Notes under the pieces: model-generated
Told to the model about the DNA's origin: nothing
The model's database searches: none
The model's input: the letters and a program-made list of their open reading frames with translations, nothing else
Source of the DNA: a virus
Reading direction: 5' to 3' (one strand)
DNA length: 64,000 nt
Virus record (IMG/VR): IMGVR_UViG_3300006919_000042
Span: 24,236 to 88,235 of that record
Program-made: the position numbers and the translations under genes
In this document: in pieces, positions 6,031 through 52,546 of the stretch
Position numbering within the stretch: the first letter of the stretch is position 1
Layout of the letters: each line of letters opens with the position of its first letter

Positions 6031-6853
6031 AGACTGTTTCCGTCGCTCTAAGGACCGCAATATCTTAACAGATGTTTGCTTCTACTATGAGCTTAAAACG
6101 ATCTCAGACAATGGCTTTTTCGCCAAAGGAACGTTGAATTCACTTCATAAAGAGCTAGAATATTCTCAATCTAATATATGGAAGAGACTTGCCCGTCTAG
6201 TTAAACTTAAACTAATAAAACAAAACGCCAATGGATATCAGGTCGTATCATACGACCAATTGTTTGAAGTGTTAGGATATGACCTAACACCAACCGAAAC
6301 ACGTAGAGGAACGTTTAAAATACATAGGGTTCCGCTACAACAATGCAAACATATAAAGGACTTGCTAGCTTTCTTAGAGATAAGAGACAACTTAAAAAGC
6401 CAAGTTTACAGAGCCTTCAATAATCTGAGACGAACGGATCAGTACACAGGACAAAAACTTTACTGCGCTAATAATGAGGATAGAAAGAAATATCTGAATG
6501 AATATGCGAACAAAAATTACGTACAGATGATTGTCAGTAACGATCAGAATATCGAACTTTGTAATATGTTAGAAGCATTTGGGAAAGGAAAGAGTACACA
6601 TTGTAATCCAGACGTTACATTATCCCTACAAGGGATTTGTAATCTATTAGGGTTATCTAATACTTCTTGCGCCCATTTAATTATCAACCGTTTAGTTGCT
6701 CAGAAGAGATTGACTAGTACTAGGAGAGAAGCGTTCATCGAAACCACTACTTTAACCTACACTGAATTCAAAGCAAAATATTCTGATCAATATACTATGA
6801 GAAACGGAATGATATTTAGAACTTTAAGTAATCAACTTACTTGTATCAATTAA
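6005..6853 (+). CDS. Putative DNA-binding protein with two winged-helix-like segments
   Basis: LHKELEYSQSNIWKRLARLVKLKLI and LSLQGICNLLGLSNTSCAHLIINRLV; TTG start. Confidence 0.5.
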   Translation: MNRHLKIPKDCFRRSKDRNILTDVCFYYELKTISDNGFFAKGTLNSLHKELEYSQSNIWKRLARLVKLKLIKQNANGYQVVSYDQLFEVLGYDLTPTETRRGTFKIHRVPLQQCKHIKDLLAFLEIRDNLKSQVYRAFNNLRRTDQYTGQKLYCANNEDRKKYLNEYANKNYVQMIVSNDQNIELCNMLEAFGKGKSTHCNPDVTLSLQGICNLLGLSNTSCAHLIINRLVAQKRLTSTRREAFIETTTLTYTEFKAKYSDQYTMRNGMIFRTLSNQLTCIN

Positions 6854-6905
6854 TAACACTACTTACCTCCCTGAGGTAGATAATAAAAGCTATATATAAA
6901 TCTAT

Positions 6906-7105: not shown

Positions 7106-7159
7106 ATCTCAGAATAAAGCACGAAGCCTTATTTGAATCACAACTTAAATCGGAATATT

Positions 7160-7388: not shown

Positions 7389-8237
7389 ATGTCACTACAA
7401 ATCGGATTCGCAACACAGTTCTTCACTCTTTGGAGCGTAGGAGAACCTTTCAAACATTTTTTTAATAAGTATGACTTTGAGTACAGAACAAGTATTCAAT
7501 ACCTTAGAAACCTTTCTAAGGATGAAGCTAAAGCAATTGACAAAGCAGTTAAATTTGGTGCTACAGATACATCAGTACATGAGTACCTAAGAGGTAAGAG
7601 TCAATCATTCACAGTTAGTGGATCAAAAGGAACTGATCGTCCAGATTGGGAATTTCCTGATGGGATTCATAGACATGGATTTGGTGATATCAGAAAATTT
7701 GGTATTGCTCAGGAAGGTGAAGATCCGATGACTAGGGGATTCGTTGAGAGAAAAGCTGATAAGATCAAAGCTCTATGGACTTTGTACTTGAAGAAAGAGA
7801 TACTTTTCGGTGAGAATAGTGCTCGTCCTGATTGGATTCGTCCATGCGTATATGCTAGAAGACAACTTATTAACTTAGGTGTAATCGTTAAGCATGATGG
7901 TCAGTATATGACTCCAGCACAAGTTGAGAAACATGATGCTAGAAAAGCACTTGAGGTAATAAAGAATACTGCAACTGCAGGTCATCACGAGAATGATGGT
8001 GATAAAGTTCAATTGAACCTGAAACAGATTGATTCATTTGGATTTGAAAGTCAATTCGGATACACTCACATCATTACTTATATCGACGACCAAAACCGTC
8101 TATTCAAATATATGGGAGCTTCTGCACCAGGAATATCTACGGAGAATTTCTCAACAATAAAATGTACAATTAAGCACGCTGAATATAAAGAGGTCAAAGA
8201 GACTAAGATTCAGAGAGCTAGAGTATTAACTAAATAA
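7389..8237 (+). CDS. Hypothetical protein, possible C-terminal OB-fold
   Basis: Start moved to ATG 7389 because the track start lies inside the promoter; C-terminal beta-rich FESQFG...TIKH...ETKIQR. Confidence 0.6.
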   Translation: MSLQIGFATQFFTLWSVGEPFKHFFNKYDFEYRTSIQYLRNLSKDEAKAIDKAVKFGATDTSVHEYLRGKSQSFTVSGSKGTDRPDWEFPDGIHRHGFGDIRKFGIAQEGEDPMTRGFVERKADKIKALWTLYLKKEILFGENSARPDWIRPCVYARRQLINLGVIVKHDGQYMTPAQVEKHDARKALEVIKNTATAGHHENDGDKVQLNLKQIDSFGFESQFGYTHIITYIDDQNRLFKYMGASAPGISTENFSTIKCTIKHAEYKEVKETKIQRARVLTK

Positions 8238-8248
8238 AATCGGAAATC

Positions 8249-9108: not shown

Positions 9109-9132
9109 CCGTAGAATTAAAATCGGAATATC

Positions 9133-9384: not shown

Positions 9385-9402
9385 TAATAAAATCGGAAAA
9401 TC

Positions 9403-11602: not shown

Positions 11603-11631
11603 AAACAATAATAATCGTAAAATAATTCACC

Positions 11632-13137
11632 ATGAGTAAAAAAATCAAAGCAATCGTAAGTGAGAAAACAATCGTTATCCACTACGACGGGAAAAAAGTT
11701 AACATCCAAAAACAGACGGATCAAACACTATTCCAAGAAGTATCTCTGTTGATTGACAACAAAGATGAAAAGGCATTAATTGCCAAATTCAAATCGATCA
11801 AAGAGATCGCAGAAAAATTCTCCAACAAGATGATTGAAGTTGATAATGATGGCAAAGCCACTCTGAAAGGAAGTGACCGAGTTATTCCACCTGCAGTGAT
11901 TAAGAAGATGTTAGAGCTTGAAAAAGACCAACAAGACTTCTTACCACTAATCAGATTCTGGAGAAAACTTCAAAAGAACCCTAGTACTAATTCACGTGAA
12001 CAACTTTATGGATTCATGCTTGCCAATCATATTCCGATTACAGAGCAAGGTGACATAGTTGTTGAAAAAGGAGTTAGTCAAAAACGAGGTGGAGTTCCAG
12101 GTCATTTAATTGACGGACACTCAGGAACAGTTGATAATAGTGTTGGACAGACTGTAGAAATGCCTAGAAGTGGTGTCGTTGATGATCCAAAACAAACTTG
12201 TAGTCGAGGACTTCATGTTGGAGCACCTGACTTCGTTAGAAATCACTGGAACCAAAAGATCATCATTGAATGTGTAGTTAATCCTGAGGACGTAGTATCT
12301 GTTCCAGTTGATTATAGGAACACCAAGATGAGAGTTTGTAAGTATAAAGTAATGGGATATAGTTCTAAGAGTGAGAGAACTAATCAAGTCGTTGCAGTAT
12401 CCGATTTTGTTACACTACCAAGTGAGGCTGTATTGAAACTTCTTAAAGATGGTGTTGAAGGTGGAAAAGAGCAGAATGAGCCTAATGAGAAGCAGGCTGT
12501 AGTTACTAGCATTAAAGTCAATAAATCAATTACAACTACCAATGAGTATGTTGAAACATTGAGTAAGATGACTGCAGGTAAAATCATCACACACGTTGAG
12601 GAGGTTACAGGAACGAAGATTACCCTTAATCCTAAGAACAAGAAAGCCATCATCAAGAAAGGTGCTGAGTTACTTGAGATATTCCACACCACTAAACAGA
12701 TTGCTGCGACGCAAGAAACTCAAGATGAAGTAATTGCTACTGTCAAGAAGCAAGAAACTGGTCCTTGGAGTGTAAGAATGACAAGTGCTGGTAGCAGTAA
12801 ACTTGCAGTAGCTAAACTATATGTTGAACAATTCAATTGTGGTTTAAGAGCTGGTAAGCAGATGATTGATAAAGCACCATTCGTTATGATATCAGGTGCT
12901 AGTAAAAGATTTGCTGAAAGATATGTAAAGCTGTTTACTGAGGTTGGTGCTAAGATGGAGACGTTCAAACCGAATGTTGATAAGAAAGAGATCGTTCTTT
13001 CAAACCACACAATTCCTCAACTAATTGGAATGGTACAAGCTAAATTCAATGAGAGAATTAAGAGTAGAGCGCCTAGAACAGAGGTTGAATCTATCACAAG
13101 AAAGCTGTATGAAAGTGCAGGTTATAAAGTAATCTAA
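11632..13137 (+). CDS. rIIB: RIIB-like protein with C-terminal ribosomal L7/L12-CTD-like domain
   Basis: FWRKLQKNPS...LYGF...PITEQG, NSVG...MPRSGVVDDPKQTCSRGLHVG, VNPEDVVSVPVDY...KMRVCKY. Confidence 0.88.
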   Translation: MSKKIKAIVSEKTIVIHYDGKKVNIQKQTDQTLFQEVSLLIDNKDEKALIAKFKSIKEIAEKFSNKMIEVDNDGKATLKGSDRVIPPAVIKKMLELEKDQQDFLPLIRFWRKLQKNPSTNSREQLYGFMLANHIPITEQGDIVVEKGVSQKRGGVPGHLIDGHSGTVDNSVGQTVEMPRSGVVDDPKQTCSRGLHVGAPDFVRNHWNQKIIIECVVNPEDVVSVPVDYRNTKMRVCKYKVMGYSSKSERTNQVVAVSDFVTLPSEAVLKLLKDGVEGGKEQNEPNEKQAVVTSIKVNKSITTTNEYVETLSKMTAGKIITHVEEVTGTKITLNPKNKKAIIKKGAELLEIFHTTKQIAATQETQDEVIATVKKQETGPWSVRMTSAGSSKLAVAKLYVEQFNCGLRAGKQMIDKAPFVMISGASKRFAERYVKLFTEVGAKMETFKPNVDKKEIVLSNHTIPQLIGMVQAKFNERIKSRAPRTEVESITRKLYESAGYKVI

Positions 13138-18199: not shown

Positions 18200-18228
18200 A
18201 CCATTATAAACAATTAAAATCGGAAATC

Positions 18229-18762
18229 GTGAACAAAAATGTAATAGTTATCACAAAAAAAGAGCAAGTACTGTTGAACAACTTTCCACAGTATCAGCCA
18301 ATTAAAGGAGATCAATTTCATGGAGCAGTAACTGTTGCTTCTGCTAATCCAGCAAAATTTATTGTCAGTGTAGACGACGATGTAGTAATGTCTGAGGAGA
18401 CATTCACTTCAATCTACGACAAAAGTAGTCTTAGAGCTGGATGGATTGATAGTACATTAACTATTCGCAGTCTTGAATTAATTAGACAAGAACTGATATC
18501 ACTTCAAACAAAATACATCAACAACGACATCGATATAATTATATTGACTTACGGTTATAATGAGTTATTTGCAGACGTTAAGAATGCAGACATCATCAAA
18601 CAAACCGGAGATTTAGTTCGTTTATGGAAGAAACAAACCAAACAATTAATGGGATTTGATATTCCTGTAGTTATTCAGATCAAACGTAGAGTAAGTTTGC
18701 TGTCAACTGAGGAAGAACAGAAGATAGATCGGTTGTTATTAACACATTTGAGTCATGAATAA
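18229..18762 (+). CDS. Hypothetical protein (GTG start)
   Basis: Start reassigned to the GTG directly after the AAAATCGGAAATC leader. Confidence 0.65.
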   Translation: MNKNVIVITKKEQVLLNNFPQYQPIKGDQFHGAVTVASANPAKFIVSVDDDVVMSEETFTSIYDKSSLRAGWIDSTLTIRSLELIRQELISLQTKYINNDIDIIILTYGYNELFADVKNADIIKQTGDLVRLWKKQTKQLMGFDIPVVIQIKRRVSLLSTEEEQKIDRLLLTHLSHE

Positions 18763-23672: not shown

Positions 23673-23695
23673 TGTCATATTAAAATCGGAAAATC

Positions 23696-24052: not shown

Positions 24053-24311
24053 ACGATGAAAGCACGAACTAGAACATTATCACCCAAACAGATGAGAGAG
24101 AAGCTCGCAACTAAAATGAGGCATGCTGAAATGCTATCAATTAGTGAAGTGAGAGCTCATTATCATAACCTATTCAAATCATTAAACCAGTAACATTAGA
24201 AACATTAATAGCAGATCAGAAAGATCGAATCGATAGATGTAATGCCAAACCAGGAGACAATGCTGTGATGGACTACATCAACGATATAAATGATGAATTA
24301 AAACAATCGTA

Positions 24312-25294: not shown

Positions 25295-25492
25295 ATGGCA
25301 TTTTACACAGGAAGAGGAGTACCAGGCGACCCAGACTTTGAAATTGAAGAATTCAAAGGATTTCCGGTTAGTAAGTGTGGCAATTATTGGGGCAGCACTC
25401 AGGAGATTGCAGATAATGCATGGAGATCGGATGTTAAGTTGACAAGACGTGAAAGAAGAGCTCGTCAAAGAGCAAAAATATTTGGTAAATAG
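25295..25492 (+). CDS. Small hypothetical protein with Arg-rich tail
   Basis: LTRRERRARQR. Confidence 0.55.
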   Translation: MAFYTGRGVPGDPDFEIEEFKGFPVSKCGNYWGSTQEIADNAWRSDVKLTRRERRARQRAKIFGK

Positions 25493-25511
25493 ATATGAAC
25501 AACATATCTTT
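25481..25511 (+). promoter_or_regulatory. Repeated promoter/operator, copy 7
   Basis: TTTGG-N5-AGATATG-N5-CATATCTTT. Confidence 0.7.
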
Positions 25512-25531
25512 AAAACATTAAAATCGGAATT

Positions 25532-25741
25532 ATGAATACACAAGCATTATTATCATTGTACGACTACTTAGGCCACGCAGCTGGATCTGAATTAGGTAAA
25601 AGAGTAAATAACTTCGCAATGTCTCGAAATGAAGAGAATGAAACACGAGATGTTAAGACACAGAGCTATGAAGGTAAGATTCAACTATACCGTAGAGAGT
25701 TCTTAGATGAGTTCTTCGCAGCAAATCCACAAGACAGATGA
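25532..25741 (+). CDS. Hypothetical protein
   Basis: SLYDYLGHAAGSELGKRV...YEGKIQLYRREFL; leader motif upstream. Confidence 0.7.
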   Translation: MNTQALLSLYDYLGHAAGSELGKRVNNFAMSRNEENETRDVKTQSYEGKIQLYRREFLDEFFAANPQDR

Positions 25742-26064
25742 TACTCAAAGCAACATTAATAAAATATAATCAAGTAGATAGTGATGGCAACATCTTCTTA
25801 CCAGGAAGCATCAACTGCGGTAAAACGTGTTTTCCGATTACGTTAGCATTTGATGCTGGTAAGATGATTGGCATTGGTATGGAGCTTGAGAACACTAAAG
25901 ATGGTGTAGAAGGAGAGCTTCACATAACTGACGCAGATCAATATAGGTTCGCACACCTACTTGAGCCAGCAATTGGAGGAATAGTCAGAGAAAGAGATGG
26001 AAACAAGATTGCCAAATTCGACTTGAGAACAGTTGGTATGGTACCTAAACAAGATAAGTCATGA
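25738..26064 (+). CDS. Degenerate prohead-protease-like protein, probably inactive
   Basis: VDSDGNIFLPG ... PAIGGIVRERDGNKI aligns by eye with LDADGEYLDP ... LSIEGKVVERDANNK of the 54890 protease. Confidence 0.5.
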   Translation: MILKATLIKYNQVDSDGNIFLPGSINCGKTCFPITLAFDAGKMIGIGMELENTKDGVEGELHITDADQYRFAHLLEPAIGGIVRERDGNKIAKFDLRTVGMVPKQDKS

Positions 26065-26552
26065 AAAAGAATATTGGATCATTATTAGCAATGGCGCTGA
26101 TGGCAGAGGGAATAGGAATGGGTATGGAAGGTGGAATACCAAATACATCATCAAAACGTGTTCGTGACCATAATAGAGTGAGAGTACCAGCCAAGAAAGT
26201 GATTCCAAAAGGATGTAAACAATATTTCTTCAATCAAAATGGATATTGGGACAATACAAGTGGTGAGAAGAACAGCTACTTTACATGCATTGCATCAAGT
26301 GATAAGGTTGCACACAAGAAATTCAACAAGTATCAACTAATCTTAATTAAACAATCATTTGATAATCTGATACACATTGAGTGCTTACGTACTGGTAAGT
26401 GTCAGGAGACAGAAGGTCTAGTTGGCACCGAATACGAAGGAATATCTGTGTGTGACGATGGCTGTGTTCAGTTCAATCCAAGAACGAAAGGAGCAATATA
26501 TATGCAAGCATTAGGAGATCGAGTATATTATTGCAATAATGTAAAGGACTGA
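26061..26552 (+). CDS. Hypothetical protein
   Basis: Coupled ORF; IPKGCKQYFF...FTCIA. Confidence 0.6.
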   Translation: MKKNIGSLLAMALMAEGIGMGMEGGIPNTSSKRVRDHNRVRVPAKKVIPKGCKQYFFNQNGYWDNTSGEKNSYFTCIASSDKVAHKKFNKYQLILIKQSFDNLIHIECLRTGKCQETEGLVGTEYEGISVCDDGCVQFNPRTKGAIYMQALGDRVYYCNNVKD

Positions 26553-26649
26553 CAAAATCGACGGTATGTGAGAACCCATCATGTCCAGATATGCCGTGCT
26601 GTGGGCAACCAAGAGAGATATGTGAAACTAATTGTAAAGGCAAATAGAT

Positions 26650-26877
26650 ATGGCAATTCAAACAATTGAAATCAGAGATGTTGGTGATGAGGTAGTCGTT
26701 TTATCAAAAAATGGAGTTGAGAGAGGGATAGTTGCACATCGTGATGTACAGAAAGACAATGCAGTCAAATATGCTATTAGAACTGAATCTCAACGTAATA
26801 ACACACACCGATTATCACAAGAGGTGTTTGATGACATAGATCAATTATTAACGTACTATAAAGACAAATTTGCATGA
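26650..26877 (+). CDS. Small SH3-like hypothetical protein
   Basis: VGDEVVVL...GIV. Confidence 0.6.
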   Translation: MAIQTIEIRDVGDEVVVLSKNGVERGIVAHRDVQKDNAVKYAIRTESQRNNTHRLSQEVFDDIDQLLTYYKDKFA

Positions 26878-26879
26878 AA

Positions 26880-27001
26880 ACAATCGCAGATCACAATTAC
26901 TCTGCAATCGATGTTCGCAACAGAAAATAAGGTGTAGAGTTTTTTTTCCGATTTCTTTACATTTACATTAGTCCCTGCGATTTTAAGTTGTGGGGATTTT
27001 T
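26880..27001 (+). ncRNA. Candidate antisense small RNA (hairpin loop complementary to the AAAUCGGAA leader)
   Basis: 10-bp stem 26930-26939/26955-26964 with loop UUUUUUUUCCGAUUU, followed by a terminator. Confidence 0.45.
26970..27001 (+). terminator. Intrinsic terminator
   Basis: AGTCCCTGCGA-loop-TTGTGGGGATTTTT (several G-U pairs). Confidence 0.7.
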
Positions 27002-27032
27002 GTTGTTTAATAGATATATATAAGTTATCTTT
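27002..27032 (+). promoter_or_regulatory. Repeated promoter/operator, copy 8
   Basis: GTTGT-N5-AGATA-N9-TATCTTT. Confidence 0.75.
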
Positions 27033-27062
27033 AGTCATTATTAACATATTAAATCGGAAATT

Positions 27063-27824
27063 ATGCCAAGAAAATCAATTGTTACACCAGAGAACATCGC
27101 AGCATTGCGAGACTTCCTATTGAAGGTTAGAGCGACTAACCACGATGGCTTAAAGCCAAAAGTAACATCTCAGCAAGGAAGAGACTTCCTTAAAGAGTAT
27201 GACATTCCAAATCCACAAGGAGTATGGAAAATCTTAGTTAGTGAAGGATTCGTTAGAAAACGTTTGAAGTCACTTAGAGGTGGTATAGTATGGATCAATC
27301 CAGTAGTGCCATGTAATCAAATGGCTAAGAAAATCTACAAAGAAGCCACTGCATTTAGAGCTACTCAGAATCAGAAATCTCTTCAGAAGAAGAACACACC
27401 AGTTGTAGTTGTTCAAGGGAATCAAAAGCAGCCACTTACTATCTTAGATCAGAGAGTGTTAGATGTATTGTCACAATCATTCACTATTGAGCAAGCATAT
27501 GAATGTGGACAAATTTTCAACCTTAATCGTTCGTCAATTGATCGATTAGTTCGTAAATTAATTGACGCAAGTAAGATTGTAAGTAATGGTACACGCTCAT
27601 GGGTTAAAGTTCCAAAAGACGTTGAGGTGGAGGCAACGGGAACATTAGTATCTAACCAAGAGGTTGAAAGTGTTGATCTAAACACTACTTACAAACAATC
27701 ATTGAAGAATTCAATCAAGGTACTATCTGACAAGATGGAGAAGGACAAAATCCTAATCGAAGAACTCAAGTTGGAGTATATTAATAACCAGATTGCATTG
27801 CTTCAATTGAAAAAGTTGCAATAA
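27063..27824 (+). CDS. Hypothetical basic protein with possible wHTH segments and coiled-coil end
   Basis: IFNLNRSSIDRLVRKLIDASKI. Confidence 0.6.
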   Translation: MPRKSIVTPENIAALRDFLLKVRATNHDGLKPKVTSQQGRDFLKEYDIPNPQGVWKILVSEGFVRKRLKSLRGGIVWINPVVPCNQMAKKIYKEATAFRATQNQKSLQKKNTPVVVVQGNQKQPLTILDQRVLDVLSQSFTIEQAYECGQIFNLNRSSIDRLVRKLIDASKIVSNGTRSWVKVPKDVEVEATGTLVSNQEVESVDLNTTYKQSLKNSIKVLSDKMEKDKILIEELKLEYINNQIALLQLKKLQ

Positions 27825-28521: not shown

Positions 28522-28552
28522 GTTGCTCAATAGATATAAGTTGGTTATCTTT
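28522..28552 (+). promoter_or_regulatory. Repeated promoter/operator, copy 10
   Basis: GTTGC-N5-AGATA-N9-TATCTTT. Confidence 0.8.
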
Positions 28553-28577
28553 AGGCATAATTAAAATCGGAAAAATT

Positions 28578-29132
28578 ATGAAAACTCAATTAACACCTCA
28601 AGAAAGAAAAGCAGCCAAAGCTGCAAAAGAACGTCAACATCAGTTAGATAAAGCGTTCAAATTCCTTAGCAAACAGACCACTTTAATGAGAGAGCGTTAT
28701 TATAACGCTGCTATCTCATTTGGTACACGTCAGATCGAGAATGCAATTACTGATATGGAACAGCAGATCGCAGAGCATGGTATGACAGATAATAGAAAAC
28801 ATTGGTTGAAACTACGTATGGATAGAAGAAACTACATTACTACTTCAAGTTGTGGTTGGTTGAAAGACGCAGAGGAAGTGTTCGACTCACGTTTAATTAA
28901 GATGTCAACAAGATTAGAAGAATTCGGATTCTTGAACAGTAGATTATATATGAAAGTAGCTAACGTTAATAGTGAAGACTCAAGAGAATTCAGTTTCGAG
29001 ATTGATATCACTAAGTACGAACATGGTAAGACAGAACCAACTAAGGTAGGTACAGCTCACGCTCGTTTAATTTGGGTTGAGTGTACTGAGAAGACTTCAC
29101 ATTGGAGATTCATCTGCACAAAAAGAAAATAA
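28578..29132 (+). CDS. Hypothetical protein
   Basis: Leader motif upstream; C-terminal HARLIW...HWRFICT. Confidence 0.7.
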   Translation: MKTQLTPQERKAAKAAKERQHQLDKAFKFLSKQTTLMRERYYNAAISFGTRQIENAITDMEQQIAEHGMTDNRKHWLKLRMDRRNYITTSSCGWLKDAEEVFDSRLIKMSTRLEEFGFLNSRLYMKVANVNSEDSREFSFEIDITKYEHGKTEPTKVGTAHARLIWVECTEKTSHWRFICTKRK

Positions 29133-29188
29133 TATTTATTATTAATCGAGTGCATCCTATAAGATGCACTCACAATACATCGGAAATT

Positions 29189-29627: not shown

Positions 29628-29657
29628 ATGTATTATTAACAGTTAAAATCGGAAATC

Positions 29658-33871: not shown

Positions 33872-35167
33872 ATGGACTTAGAACAACAAATCAGGAATCA
33901 AAGAGTAGAACGAGCAAATCAATTACGCAAATCAATGTCATCTGACATATCCAAAGGAGGGGCCTTAGGTCAGGAAGGTGAAGTAAGAACATACGCAAAT
34001 GGGAAAAAGTATAAGAAAACGGGTAATAAGTGGGTTGAAGTGGGCTCTGATAAGAAGTCTAAGAAGCAAGATGAAAAGGGCGGTGAGAAGAATAAAGCGC
34101 AGGCTGGAGAATCTTCTGTAGATCGACACGAGACAGCTCAACTTACGCACATGAAATCATTAGTTGAGAGTGGAGATCATGCAAAAGCATATGAAATCTA
34201 CCAATCACTATCTCCAGAAGCTCAGAACGCTGTGCCTCAAAATATTGTCAATGATATGGTTAAGGATGGTCACTCTGAAAAGACTGATCCAGCTAAAGAG
34301 ATATTTGAAGACAAAAAAGACGTAAAGAAGGAAGAGAAGCCTGCTGAAAAACCTACTGAGAAGAAAGAATCTCTCAAAGTAGGAGATACATTTGATATGT
34401 ATGGAAGAGAAGCTAAAATTCTTTCAATTGATGGAGATAAAGCTACAATTCAATGGGGTAATGGAGATCCTATGACGCAAGATAAAGCAGGTTTAGAAAA
34501 AATGAAGAATGAAGGACCTGAGTTACAAAAAAAGATTGATGCGATAGATGAGAAGAATAAGCAAAAAGAGCAACAGAAAAAAGAAATACAAGCATCTGTA
34601 AAAAATGTAATAAAAGAAGCTCTTGGAGGCGATTTGAGATTAAGTTCAGTTTCAGAAAGAGGAGGAAGATATAGTCAAGGAAGCGTCACTCCAGAACAGA
34701 GAGCTAAGGTATTATCTGCGTTCAAGAATGCAGATAATTCAGTTAAAACAGATGCAAAAGGAACGTATGATGGAGATACTGGATATTTAGATTTTGGATC
34801 TCATACAGTACATTTAATAAATGCACGAAATAAACCAGAGGAGAGAATTGCATTTGAGATAAGGCCTAAGCGAGACGTTCAAATCAAAAAGGCTTGGGAT
34901 ACATTAGGTTTTACTAAAGCAGAAGACCTTAAAGGTGGTCTTGCAGACGGAATGTCATGTGGAGATATAGCTAAGAAGCATGGTGTAACAAAAGAGGCTA
35001 TTGAAGCGCAATTAGCAATGGGGATTAAAGTGGAAATGGAACACACCAACGATAAGAGTAAAGCATCAGAGATTGCACACGATCACTTATTTGAAGATCC
35101 AAAATACTACACCAAACTCGCTAAGATGGAGAGTGTAAAGAAATCATTTAAAATACTAGGACTATAA
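33872..35167 (+). CDS. Putative virion-internal protein with C-terminal DUF5661-like domain
   Basis: LRKS/ISKG sites then GEVRTYANGKKYKKTGNKW; C-terminal QLAMGIKVEMEHT...IAHDHLFEDPKYYTKLAKME. Confidence 0.7.
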   Translation: MDLEQQIRNQRVERANQLRKSMSSDISKGGALGQEGEVRTYANGKKYKKTGNKWVEVGSDKKSKKQDEKGGEKNKAQAGESSVDRHETAQLTHMKSLVESGDHAKAYEIYQSLSPEAQNAVPQNIVNDMVKDGHSEKTDPAKEIFEDKKDVKKEEKPAEKPTEKKESLKVGDTFDMYGREAKILSIDGDKATIQWGNGDPMTQDKAGLEKMKNEGPELQKKIDAIDEKNKQKEQQKKEIQASVKNVIKEALGGDLRLSSVSERGGRYSQGSVTPEQRAKVLSAFKNADNSVKTDAKGTYDGDTGYLDFGSHTVHLINARNKPEERIAFEIRPKRDVQIKKAWDTLGFTKAEDLKGGLADGMSCGDIAKKHGVTKEAIEAQLAMGIKVEMEHTNDKSKASEIAHDHLFEDPKYYTKLAKMESVKKSFKILGL

Positions 35168-36363
35168 TGGACCAAATTAGAAAAGCGATATTACAACAAC
35201 AGCTTGAAAGAGCTGAGAACATAGCTGAAACCTTCGAGAAGGGTCAGGCACTTCCTAATGGTACTATACGTAGAAGACCTAATGGCAACTTCATCAAAAC
35301 ACCTGCAGGGTGGAAGTATCATTCAAGTTTGAGTGCTAATAGTTCAAATGCTGTTGAGAGTGCTAATAATGCACAAGCAGTGAGAAATGCACCAGCACCA
35401 CAACCACAATTGTTGGGGATAGTTGATAATCAAAAAGTTTATAATATGCCATCTAGTCCGGAAAAAGAGTCCGCTGAATATGTTGGATTAGTAGAAAGTC
35501 AGAGAGCATATAAAAGAATAGCAACTAAACCTTCAATGCCTAAAGTAGGCGCTAGTGTTAAAATCAGTCAGCAAGGAGCTAAGCTGATATCACTACAGCC
35601 ATTTGAAGGAAAAACTCTTACAGTAGAAAAGATTGTTGATACCGGACTGATAAGTGAACCTCAACAAGTTAAGGTGACTGATGGTAAGGGAAGTTCGATC
35701 ATTGTTAGTGTAAAAGACCTTCAACCAGTAAAGGAGGCTACTAAAGCTGCATCAAAAGAAAAGATTACTACATTCGCTAATATGAGTGATGAAGGCAAGA
35801 AGGAATTAACAAAAATTGTTACCGATCCAAGTTTAGAGAAATTAAGCTCTTGGAATGGTGACCGAAACAATAAGATAATAGAGATGGTCTCAGCTAAATT
35901 TAAGCTCGATCCATCAAGAGAAGCTAAAGAGCAGGTTGTTGCTTTATATAAAGAAAGAAGTGCTGTAAAGAAACTTGCAATAAGTGCAATTTTAGATAAG
36001 TATCGACCTAATCACGGTAAGCCTATAACTAAACAAGCTGTTAAAGAGGCTATGCAAATCGACCCAAAAACTGCTCAGACGTTGATGAATCATAAGCTCA
36101 GAGCGGCGAATTGGGAATCGAGTGGCAATCCATCAAGTCATCAAACAATCAAAGGAGACAAATTAATAATCAGAATGCCAAGAGGATCTCGTGATTGGGA
36201 TAGACCGAAAGGGAATGATAAGACTCAGATGAAAACAATTATGAGTGACTTAGGATTTAAGTTGTTGAAGGAAGATTTGACTGATCCGTATGAATGGCAA
36301 GATGATAAGGGAGGTTCGGGAACGTCGAGAGATGATCAATTCACATTCAAAATGCCTAAATAA
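35167..36363 (+). CDS. Putative virion-internal protein
   Basis: MDQIRKA...FEKGQALPNGTIRRRPNGNFIKTPAGWKYH. Confidence 0.7.
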   Translation: MDQIRKAILQQQLERAENIAETFEKGQALPNGTIRRRPNGNFIKTPAGWKYHSSLSANSSNAVESANNAQAVRNAPAPQPQLLGIVDNQKVYNMPSSPEKESAEYVGLVESQRAYKRIATKPSMPKVGASVKISQQGAKLISLQPFEGKTLTVEKIVDTGLISEPQQVKVTDGKGSSIIVSVKDLQPVKEATKAASKEKITTFANMSDEGKKELTKIVTDPSLEKLSSWNGDRNNKIIEMVSAKFKLDPSREAKEQVVALYKERSAVKKLAISAILDKYRPNHGKPITKQAVKEAMQIDPKTAQTLMNHKLRAANWESSGNPSSHQTIKGDKLIIRMPRGSRDWDRPKGNDKTQMKTIMSDLGFKLLKEDLTDPYEWQDDKGGSGTSRDDQFTFKMPK

Positions 36364-51919: not shown

Positions 51920-52546
51920 ATGTTAGCATTATTGAAAATTGAGAATCTCAAAACGTTTTTGATCGTAGGAGCAATCATAGCAGCTGTGATCTTCTGGAAG
52001 GACTACCAATATCAAATCGGAGAGAATAATCGTCAAACTGAGAATATGGAACAAGTGCGTAAGTTCGATAGCTTGAAGTTTGCTAGTCAGACATACACCA
52101 AAAAAGAGATTGATGAATATCTTGAATACAATAGAAGCGATTTAAAGGACTTTCTTAATAAGTACGACATAAAGACAAGGAGACTAGAAAAGATCATTAC
52201 ACAATCATTAGAGTACCGTGATACAACGTCAAACAACATTGATTTGAGTCCTATATTACAAGCAATCAAAAATAACACTAGAGAAATTTCAGTTCCGGTG
52301 ATTGATAGTACCGACTGTTTAATTGTAAAAGGATTTGTTATATTCAAGAATGATACACTATCACTAAACATAACTGATCGTAAATTCAAAAATAAGAGTG
52401 ATGTTGTTCAATATTGGGAAAGAAACCAATGGAACTTTCTAGGAATAAAAACTAGACTGTTCGGTAAGAAGAGTACAACAGTAATCATCAAAGATAGTTG
52501 TGGAAACACAGAAACATTTATTATTGATGCTAAAAAGAAATCGTAA
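51920..52546 (+). CDS. Membrane-anchored protein, spanin-like candidate
   Basis: N-terminal TM, coiled segment, C-terminal WNFLGIKTRLFGKK. Confidence 0.45.
   Translation: MLALLKIENLKTFLIVGAIIAAVIFWKDYQYQIGENNRQTENMEQVRKFDSLKFASQTYTKKEIDEYLEYNRSDLKDFLNKYDIKTRRLEKIITQSLEYRDTTSNNIDLSPILQAIKNNTREISVPVIDSTDCLIVKGFVIFKNDTLSLNITDRKFKNKSDVVQYWERNQWNFLGIKTRLFGKKSTTVIIKDSCGNTETFIIDAKKKS

Follow-up and report, generated by a model that had tools for sequence, protein, structure and literature searches.

Base-pairing sRNAs of the CpxQ, SroC, DapZ and MicL type are derived from the 3′ UTRs of bacterial mRNAs. In phages, the loops of the C4 antisense RNA of P1 and P7 and of the P4 CI RNA pair with the ribosome-binding region of phage genes, and in temperate phages C4 serves immunity by controlling a single operon (icd-ant). 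RsaE and other Rsa RNAs, as well as the CcsR/Cuckoo RNAs, carry C/U-rich anti-Shine-Dalgarno (anti-SD) seeds that address many mRNAs. Pairing also occurs within a single message: the B. subtilis hbs mRNA has a 3′ UTR motif complementary to its own translation initiation region, and the icaR mRNA of Staphylococcus aureus reportedly pairs its 5′ UTR with its 3′ UTR. At the protein level, T4 RegA represses the translation of early genes through a shared start-codon element. Most accounts of temporal control in phages invoke promoters, sigma and anti-sigma factors and, in a few cases, protein repressors such as RegA. Bacteroidota, for their part, largely lack Hfq. Among published studies, intergenic and 5′ UTR-derived sRNAs are listed in phage 201phi2-1 (PMC11512511), another report describes a 3′ UTR-derived sRNA that acts on CTXphi (PMC13250501), and two others describe SD-independent translation in Bacteroidota (PMC6847099, PMC9976891). 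Our literature search found no class-wide anti-leader described for lytic or Bacteroidota phages.

The locus analysed here belongs to an uncultured Bacteroidota-type phage, probably lytic, represented by an 88-kb IMG/VR record (G000); the window, a stretch of 64,000 nt, comprises bases 24236-88235 of that record. Nearly all of its genes lie on the + strand, rIIA, rIIB and ribonucleotide reductase among them, and many early-region genes are preceded by a promoter of the form TTG-N6/7-AGATA-N9-TATCTTT, whose outer parts we take to fit the Bacteroidota −33/−7 type. The motif AAATCGGAA, hereafter the tag, occurs ten times on the + strand of the window and once on the − strand (26946-26954), where 0.33 copies are expected; 11 copies were reached in 0 of 100 shuffles. 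Each + strand copy ends 2-5 nt upstream of an ATG or GTG, marking ten genes between 7.1 and 29.7 kb. In G000 and two related sequences (G001 and L327), the spacing from tag to start codon is constant while the spacing from tag to promoter varies from 9 to 41 nt, and the tag also stands upstream of internal genes that have no promoter. Because the tag is tied to the start codon and not to the promoter, it appears to act at the level of RNA or translation. The same two features argue against a DNA-level site, in which the tag would bind a phage DNA-binding protein and the reverse copy would be the same site in the other orientation; the palindrome in the promoter does suggest a dimeric DNA binder, yet we regard this as the least probable reading of the locus.

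Two further sequence classes were observed alongside the tag. A second leader class, AAATCGTAA(A), is found 2-6 nt upstream of the ATG of eight genes in G000 and ten in G001 (for example, at 11617-11628, 24300-24311 and 52535-52545 of the window, and also in G000 upstream of the window), mostly outside the early promoter set, and no complementary element was found for this class. The palindromic promoter itself, GTTG-N6-AGATA-N8-GTATCTTTA, has 14 copies in the window between 7075 and 48695 and recurs in at least 29 further, more distant IMG/VR records (G008-G036; phage records of 35-100 kb with 25-45% amino-acid identity to G000), many of which carry an invariant AGATAAACATTGTGTATCTTT five to six times per genome; a reversed control pattern gave 0 matches.

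The sole reverse copy of the tag is located in the 185-nt gap between the stop codon of a 75-aa gene (26877) and the gene at 27063. The 75-aa gene ends an operon (25532-26877) that is headed by a promoter (TTG, AGATA-N9-TATCTTT) and the leader AAATCGGAA at 25521-25529 (together 25477-25531), and the reverse copy falls in the 3′ UTR of this operon. Folding of 26878-27010 on the + strand with RNAfold (ΔG −32.9, z −3.2) yields a 10-bp hairpin at 26930-26964, seen in the minimum free energy and centroid structures and in the base-pair probabilities, in which the 5′ arm AGGTGTAGAG (RNA AGGUGUAGAG, 26930-26939) pairs with the 3′ arm CTTTACATTT (RNA CUUUACAUUU, 26955-26964) through seven Watson-Crick and three G-U pairs. 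The enclosed 15-nt loop TTTTTTTTCCGATTT (RNA UUUUUUUUCCGAUUU, 26940-26954), here called the anti-leader, is the reverse complement of AAATCGGAAAAAAAA and has a predicted mean unpaired probability of 0.88. A weak GCAGA/UCUGC hairpin comes first in the fold and an intrinsic terminator comes last (26970-27010; a stem of 12-13 bp at 26970-26998, then a U-run), and the U-rich tail of the terminator overlaps the −33 TTG of the next promoter, which together with the leader AAATCGGAA at 27051-27059 occupies 27002-27062 and precedes the gene at 27063-27824. On the minus strand the hairpin does not form (z −0.97); its three G-U pairs, possible only in + strand RNA, make it specific to that RNA, which again speaks against a site in DNA.

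An earlier note, made from the letters of this DNA, had described the hairpin with its seven Watson-Crick and three G-U pairs, the 15-nt loop as reverse complement of the leader motif, the terminator behind it and the lack of a start codon following the − strand copy of the motif, all of which the folding and the motif count bear out. Its placement of the element in a 3′ UTR ahead of a terminator, with the motif exposed in the loop, is likewise supported. Its GCAGA/TCTGC hairpin stood in part: it folds weakly on the + strand and is not conserved, lying in a spacer that is 32% identical in a relative and within a gene remnant. The label of a 'master' regulator was overstated, as the second leader class stands upstream of eight other genes and is unmatched by the loop. 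No result of the analysis connects the element with the palindromic promoter in the 'two-layer' shut-off that the note proposed.

Other identities for the hairpin were considered and rejected. It is not an ordinary intrinsic terminator, being A/U-rich with three G-U pairs and followed by ACAUUAG and not by a U-run. Nor is it part of a small protein gene: 33-codon ORFs run over the hairpin in both G000 (26870-26971) and its relative L316, reading CCG-ATT-TCT in the former and TCC-GAT-TTA in the latter, and because the frames differ, conservation of the hairpin is not due to protein coding. By eye, no promoter of the TTG/TAnnTTTG type was seen in 26800-26930 from which the element could be transcribed on its own. 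A cmscan of 26500-27200 against Rfam (E ≤ 1) matched no family, returning only ncr1575 at 24 bits (gathering score 60, E 0.33), and the C4 covariance model gave no match in the same region and at the same threshold. Within the terminator, the 5′ arm and loop hold CGATTTTAA (26978-26986), the complement of TTAAAATCG, which is the 5′ half of five leaders; as it is absent from L316, this match is probably due to chance.

The predicted pairing of the loop with the leaders consists of 9-12 A/U-rich base pairs at about −11 to −14 kcal/mol and covers positions of about −3 to −15 in G000 and in the relatives L327 and G006. The top predicted target is the leader at 28564-28572 (gene 28578; 12 nt, −13.8 kcal/mol), followed by those of rIIA (gene 9403; 9390-9398) and gene 23696 (23683-23691) at 11 nt each, those of gene 8249 (8237-8245), the GTG start at 18229 (18217-18225) and gene 29658 (29646-29654) at 10 nt each, and those at 7147-7155 and of gene 9133 (9120-9128) at 9 nt each. 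The leader of the element's own operon (25521-25529) also pairs over 9 nt, compared to up to 12 nt for other G000 leaders, and a partial tag ATCGGAAA upstream of an internal gene (29179-29186) pairs over 8 nt; the lengths given in the earlier note (9-12 nt with ten leaders, 8 nt at 29179) are reproduced. When the loop was compared to all start regions, a check that the note had proposed, 9 of the 10 best-pairing regions among 107 were tag bearers (−10.7 to −13.8 kcal/mol, against a median of −5.7). However, the case within G000 alone is modest. In a sense-strand duplex scan against the consensus leader, the site ranks about 6th at −11.6 kcal/mol, and five other sense-strand loci pair as well or better (−11.7 to −14.6 kcal/mol), so that complementarity by itself is not exceptional and the verdict rests on relatives.

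Neither blastn nor tblastn of the region found a relative among cultured phages (rIIA was at most 37% identical), both flanking proteins had no matches in IMG/VR, and the 253-aa flanking protein matched only itself, on four contigs, among 5.8 billion proteins. A scan with the pattern TATCTTT..AAATCGGAA returned single matches only, mostly due to chance, and an rIIB scan of metagenomes gave no matches. In IMG/VR, the promoter-plus-tag pattern found G001, a syntenic record of 79 kb whose proteins are about 50-60% identical in amino acids and which shares the promoter and the tag; a capsid-protein scan added G004, G005 and G006; and in metagenomes the promoter-plus-tag pattern gave several true relatives among chance matches. 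The comparison is based on about five lineages.

The closest counterpart of the site is found in L316, a 2.7-kb metagenome contig that is syntenic with it. The contig opens with the last part of a 75-aa-gene homologue; then come a hairpin with a terminator behind it, a promoter with its tagged leader, and lastly a gene 27063 homologue (32% identity, E 5e-6). Identity between the two is 32% in the spacer after the stop codon, 73% in the hairpin block, 38% in the terminator and 70% in the promoter; the loop, at 14 of 15 positions, is the best-conserved piece of the intergenic region. Conservation of the loop in a relative that keeps the leader motif had been set in advance as a test of the proposal, and this is what L316 displays. 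In its minimum free energy fold the L316 anti-tag is partly paired (unpaired probability 0.64), and RNAalifold of the two sequences finds no consensus hairpin and no alignment-based covariation of the stem; their stem registers differ.

The compact arrangement of both sites, with a terminator, promoter and tagged leader within about 110 nt of the anti-leader in G000 and in L316, would also suit an insulator against read-through. The anti-leader would then pair in cis with the leader at 27051-27059, about 100 nt downstream, which is very unlikely, and gene 27063 would be translated only from transcripts of its own promoter, an equally improbable outcome. A strong terminator should allow little read-through to begin with, and in two other lineages (L327 and G004) no promoter or tag precedes the gene that follows the terminator.

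The first of these, L327, is a G001-like contig that contains rIIA and rIIB (53% identity). The terminator of its rIIB gene has the sequence GGGGCGTAC-TTTCCGATT-GTACGTCCC and ends in a T-run, and the 9-nt loop TTTCCGATT complements AAUCGGAAA, with an unpaired probability of 0.98 for the anti-tag. Across 197.6 kb of genomes and contigs with AAATCGGAA leaders, the 8-mer TTCCGATT has three sense-strand non-coding copies, all of them in the loops of hairpins or terminators; 8-mers of the same composition (n = 840) average 0.17 copies, and 2 of the 840 reach three.

In G004, the leader has a different sequence, (T)GGTGTAGAAATCAA in place of AAATCGGAA, and it follows at least eight promoters. The exact 15-nt complement of GGTGTAGAAATCAA occurs once on the sense strand in 97 kb, between the rIIB stop codon and its terminator; about 1e-4 occurrences of an exact 15-mer complement would be expected by chance in a sequence of that length. 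Its duplex (−24.1 kcal/mol) stands apart from the next best (−15.7 kcal/mol) and from the genome mean (−4.8, sd 2.1). There is no synteny between the G000 and G004 sites. In G004 the tag directly adjoins the −7 element of the promoter, where operators are typically found, which counts for a DNA-level site; against it, the reverse copies always reside in 3′ UTR loops or single-stranded stretches. In G006, several leaders, including that of rIIA, end in AAGAGAGA(A), while the apical loop of a long rIIB terminator reads UUUCUCUCUU, and TTCTCTCT has only two sense-strand occurrences; these matches weakly suggest a third, weaker version of the tag and anti-tag (p about 0.04). The covariation of loop and leader that the earlier note had called for in related phages is therefore seen, with G004 and G006, whose leaders differ, carrying the matching complement. 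The order of stop codon, anti-leader and terminator, which in G000 runs from 26877 through 26930-26964 to 26970-26998, is common to L316, L327, G004 and G006.

Further, an unbiased scan of nine genomes for sense-strand non-coding 9-mers complementary to three or more leaders returned the G000 and G004 sites as the matches complementary to eight leaders each; the rest either belonged to promoter palindromes or were A/T-rich words with fewer leader matches, mostly in the AT-rich G006. A cross-lineage duplex matrix has the expected diagonal, confounded by element length. The element is not universal. It is absent from the sequence present in the G001 record (76% complete and without the rII region) and from the distant relatives G008, G017, G029 and G030, and G005 has no shared tag, no significant complement and no enrichment of complementarity in its rIIB 3′ UTR. 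An apparent anti-leader in G005, CTACAGATT, was rejected because it matches coding GAA-TCT-GTA-GAA codons and not leaders, and AUUUUCGAUU in G001 (12019-12028), considered as a G-U-compensated copy, was dropped because it falls outside the 15 best duplex sites. Across 63 surveyed rIIB loci, complementarity was not enriched over a cross-locus null, though at low power, since each locus offered few start regions and the starts were called crudely.

Two groups of conserved structures were also seen downstream of rIIB in other phages. Nine marine IMG/VR phages (L352, L356, L357, L367, L374, L377, L383, L387 and L400) have a conserved rIIB 3′ UTR hairpin whose apical part is GTTTCCTCCAT (CCUCC, anti-SD-like), within the first ~80 nt past the rIIB stop codon and mostly at about 6784-6860; no matching 7-mer was found in the start regions of these 12-kb loci. 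In L361-L366, L368-L371, L373, L376 and L403, a long post-rIIB hairpin, formed by CCTCACAAG...CTTGTGAGG around a loop rich in G and U (repeats of TGTTGTTGTT), lies within the first ~110 nt past the rIIB stop codon, is followed by a terminator and is conserved across many contigs.

Two readings in particular compete with an anti-leader acting on the tagged genes. The first is that the element contacts, in cis, the leader that heads its own operon, closing the message and tuning the translation or stability of that operon only; the partner would be 25521-25529 in G000 and the rIIA leader in L327, G004 and G006. Every transcript that bears an anti-leader does begin with a tagged leader, and three of the five sites follow rIIB in an operon with tagged rIIA first. 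Yet the own leader is the poorest match in G000, at 9 nt versus up to 12 nt for others, and in G004, where a bulged 9-nt duplex compares with 15 nt for five other leaders; G004 moreover has a second, untagged promoter between rIIA and rIIB. Judging from these predicted duplexes, the shorter pairing with own-operon leaders favours action in trans over a purely intramolecular 5′-3′ contact, and we consider the cis reading unlikely, if still worth weighing.

The second is that the element has no function and is a relic of an inverted leader cassette, of recombination or of chance at a deletion scar, its likeness to L316 reflecting common descent. The surroundings lend this some substance. An 18-codon ORF (26874-26930, +; MKTIADHNYSAIDVRNRK*) overlaps the stop codon of the 75-aa gene (ATGA), holds the first hairpin and shares 8 identical residues with the first 13 of a 326-aa ThyX-like G001 gene, along with two 9-nt identical DNA blocks; in G001 that gene sits behind the homologue of the 75-aa gene, and a full copy is absent from G000. 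This stretch is likely a remnant of the ThyX-like gene, or deletion scar, adjoining the site as context and not as part of the element. Gene inversions are known in the clade: G001 34761-35373 (L144) is an inverted homologue of window 28522-29132, gene 28578, with its own promoter and a AAAATCGGAA leader, which indicates that promoter-leader-gene cassettes invert. Moreover, the hairpin 5′ arm GGTGTAGAG resembles the G004-type leader GGTGTAGAAATC, and the loop with the 3′ arm, CCGATTTCTTTACAT, resembles the G004 anti-leader TTGATTTCTACAC (L345 4175-4189), so that the G000 hairpin has the look of a leader and an anti-leader joined in cis, a resemblance that hints at common ancestry of the elements. 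The site is also thermodynamically not unique in G000, and several relatives lack it. A relic should nevertheless decay like its flanks, and the loop is 93% identical where the flanks are 32-38% identical; the exact 15-mer of G004 is too improbable to be a chance match and has kept no part of the promoter expected in a relic cassette; and three independent placements in loops or single-stranded 3′ UTR stretches are difficult to attribute to chance (p about 0.002). A functionless origin is therefore doubtful, and the resemblance of the arms is compatible with an element that may have arisen by rearrangement and was then kept.

Taken together, the lineage-specific co-variation of tag and anti-tag, their placement in 3′ UTR loops or single-stranded stretches and the G-U pairs of the stem argue for RNA-RNA pairing and not for a DNA site or a relic. 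From this pattern, the element probably functions as an anti-leader RNA, and we give about even chances to the more specific proposal that the hairpin acts on the tagged early genes by base pairing. According to this proposal, the anti-leader would form the 3′ end of the message of early operon 25532-26877, which would run from the promoter near 25490 to the terminator at 26970-26998, and the open loop would present UUCCGAUUU together with a U-run. Its partner would be the AAAUCGGAA(A)n tag, which in ten or more early-region genes, rIIA included, stands 2-5 nt ahead of the start codon; these genes are carried on other transcripts, and the pairing would mask the region where the 30S subunit binds. 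As the pairing covers the ribosome loading region, repression of initiation is the simplest outcome; the most likely effect would be less translation initiation, and possibly faster decay, of the tagged class. Accumulation of the 3′ end, protected by its terminator, could provide delayed negative feedback, or a timer, on the early class. The 3′ end might be processed into a small RNA, but as it has no promoter of its own, the element may act only as part of the mRNA.

More tentatively, and as a possibility that we rate well below the anti-leader proposal itself, a private address on early mRNAs throughout the clade and its complement in the 3′ end of an early operon, often that of rII, may form a self-timed, lineage-specific switch. 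If so, accumulating terminator-protected 3′ ends would titrate the tagged leaders as a whole and switch off the class. The anti-leader proposal, for its part, would mean that a 3′ UTR RNA addresses a whole gene class via a phage-private tag, and that a post-transcriptional layer is added to phage development. It would also offer a first handle on how phages of Bacteroidota program translation in hosts without Shine-Dalgarno pairing, and compact orthogonal tag/anti-tag pairs for synthetic control in these bacteria.

Compared to the known systems, the element is most like the bacterial 3′ UTR-derived sRNAs, with a seed just upstream of or inside the intrinsic terminator of an mRNA, no separate promoter, a seed more conserved than its surroundings and several targets at initiation regions; unlike them, the regulator and its predicted targets are all phage genes, and the targets share one private tag. 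With hbs and icaR it would have in common a 3′ UTR motif able to pair with the translation start of its own mRNA, but here the own leader is the weakest match in G000 and G004 and the sequence matched is a phage-specific tag and not a Shine-Dalgarno. The G000 loop shares with the anti-SD-seed sRNAs the use of one exposed motif against a sequence common to many start regions; those sRNAs exploit the universal SD, whereas the loop matches a lineage-private tag in a phylum whose ribosomes, according to the Bacteroidota studies cited above, ignore the SD. Like RegA, the proposed system would shut off early-gene translation across a class. A protein would not be expected to recognise the complement of its RNA target, however, and the reverse copies consequently point to RNA-RNA pairing. 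Finally, C4 RNA and the element of this clade both have a loop and target that differ between related phages and change together, while the G000 element, unlike C4, addresses about ten dispersed early genes and is a 3′ UTR hairpin in place of a processed leader RNA. If the self-timed switch suggested above exists, address and anti-address would co-evolve, so that translation in related phages would be under mutually orthogonal control, a counterpart in lytic phages to the heteroimmunity of P1 and P7.
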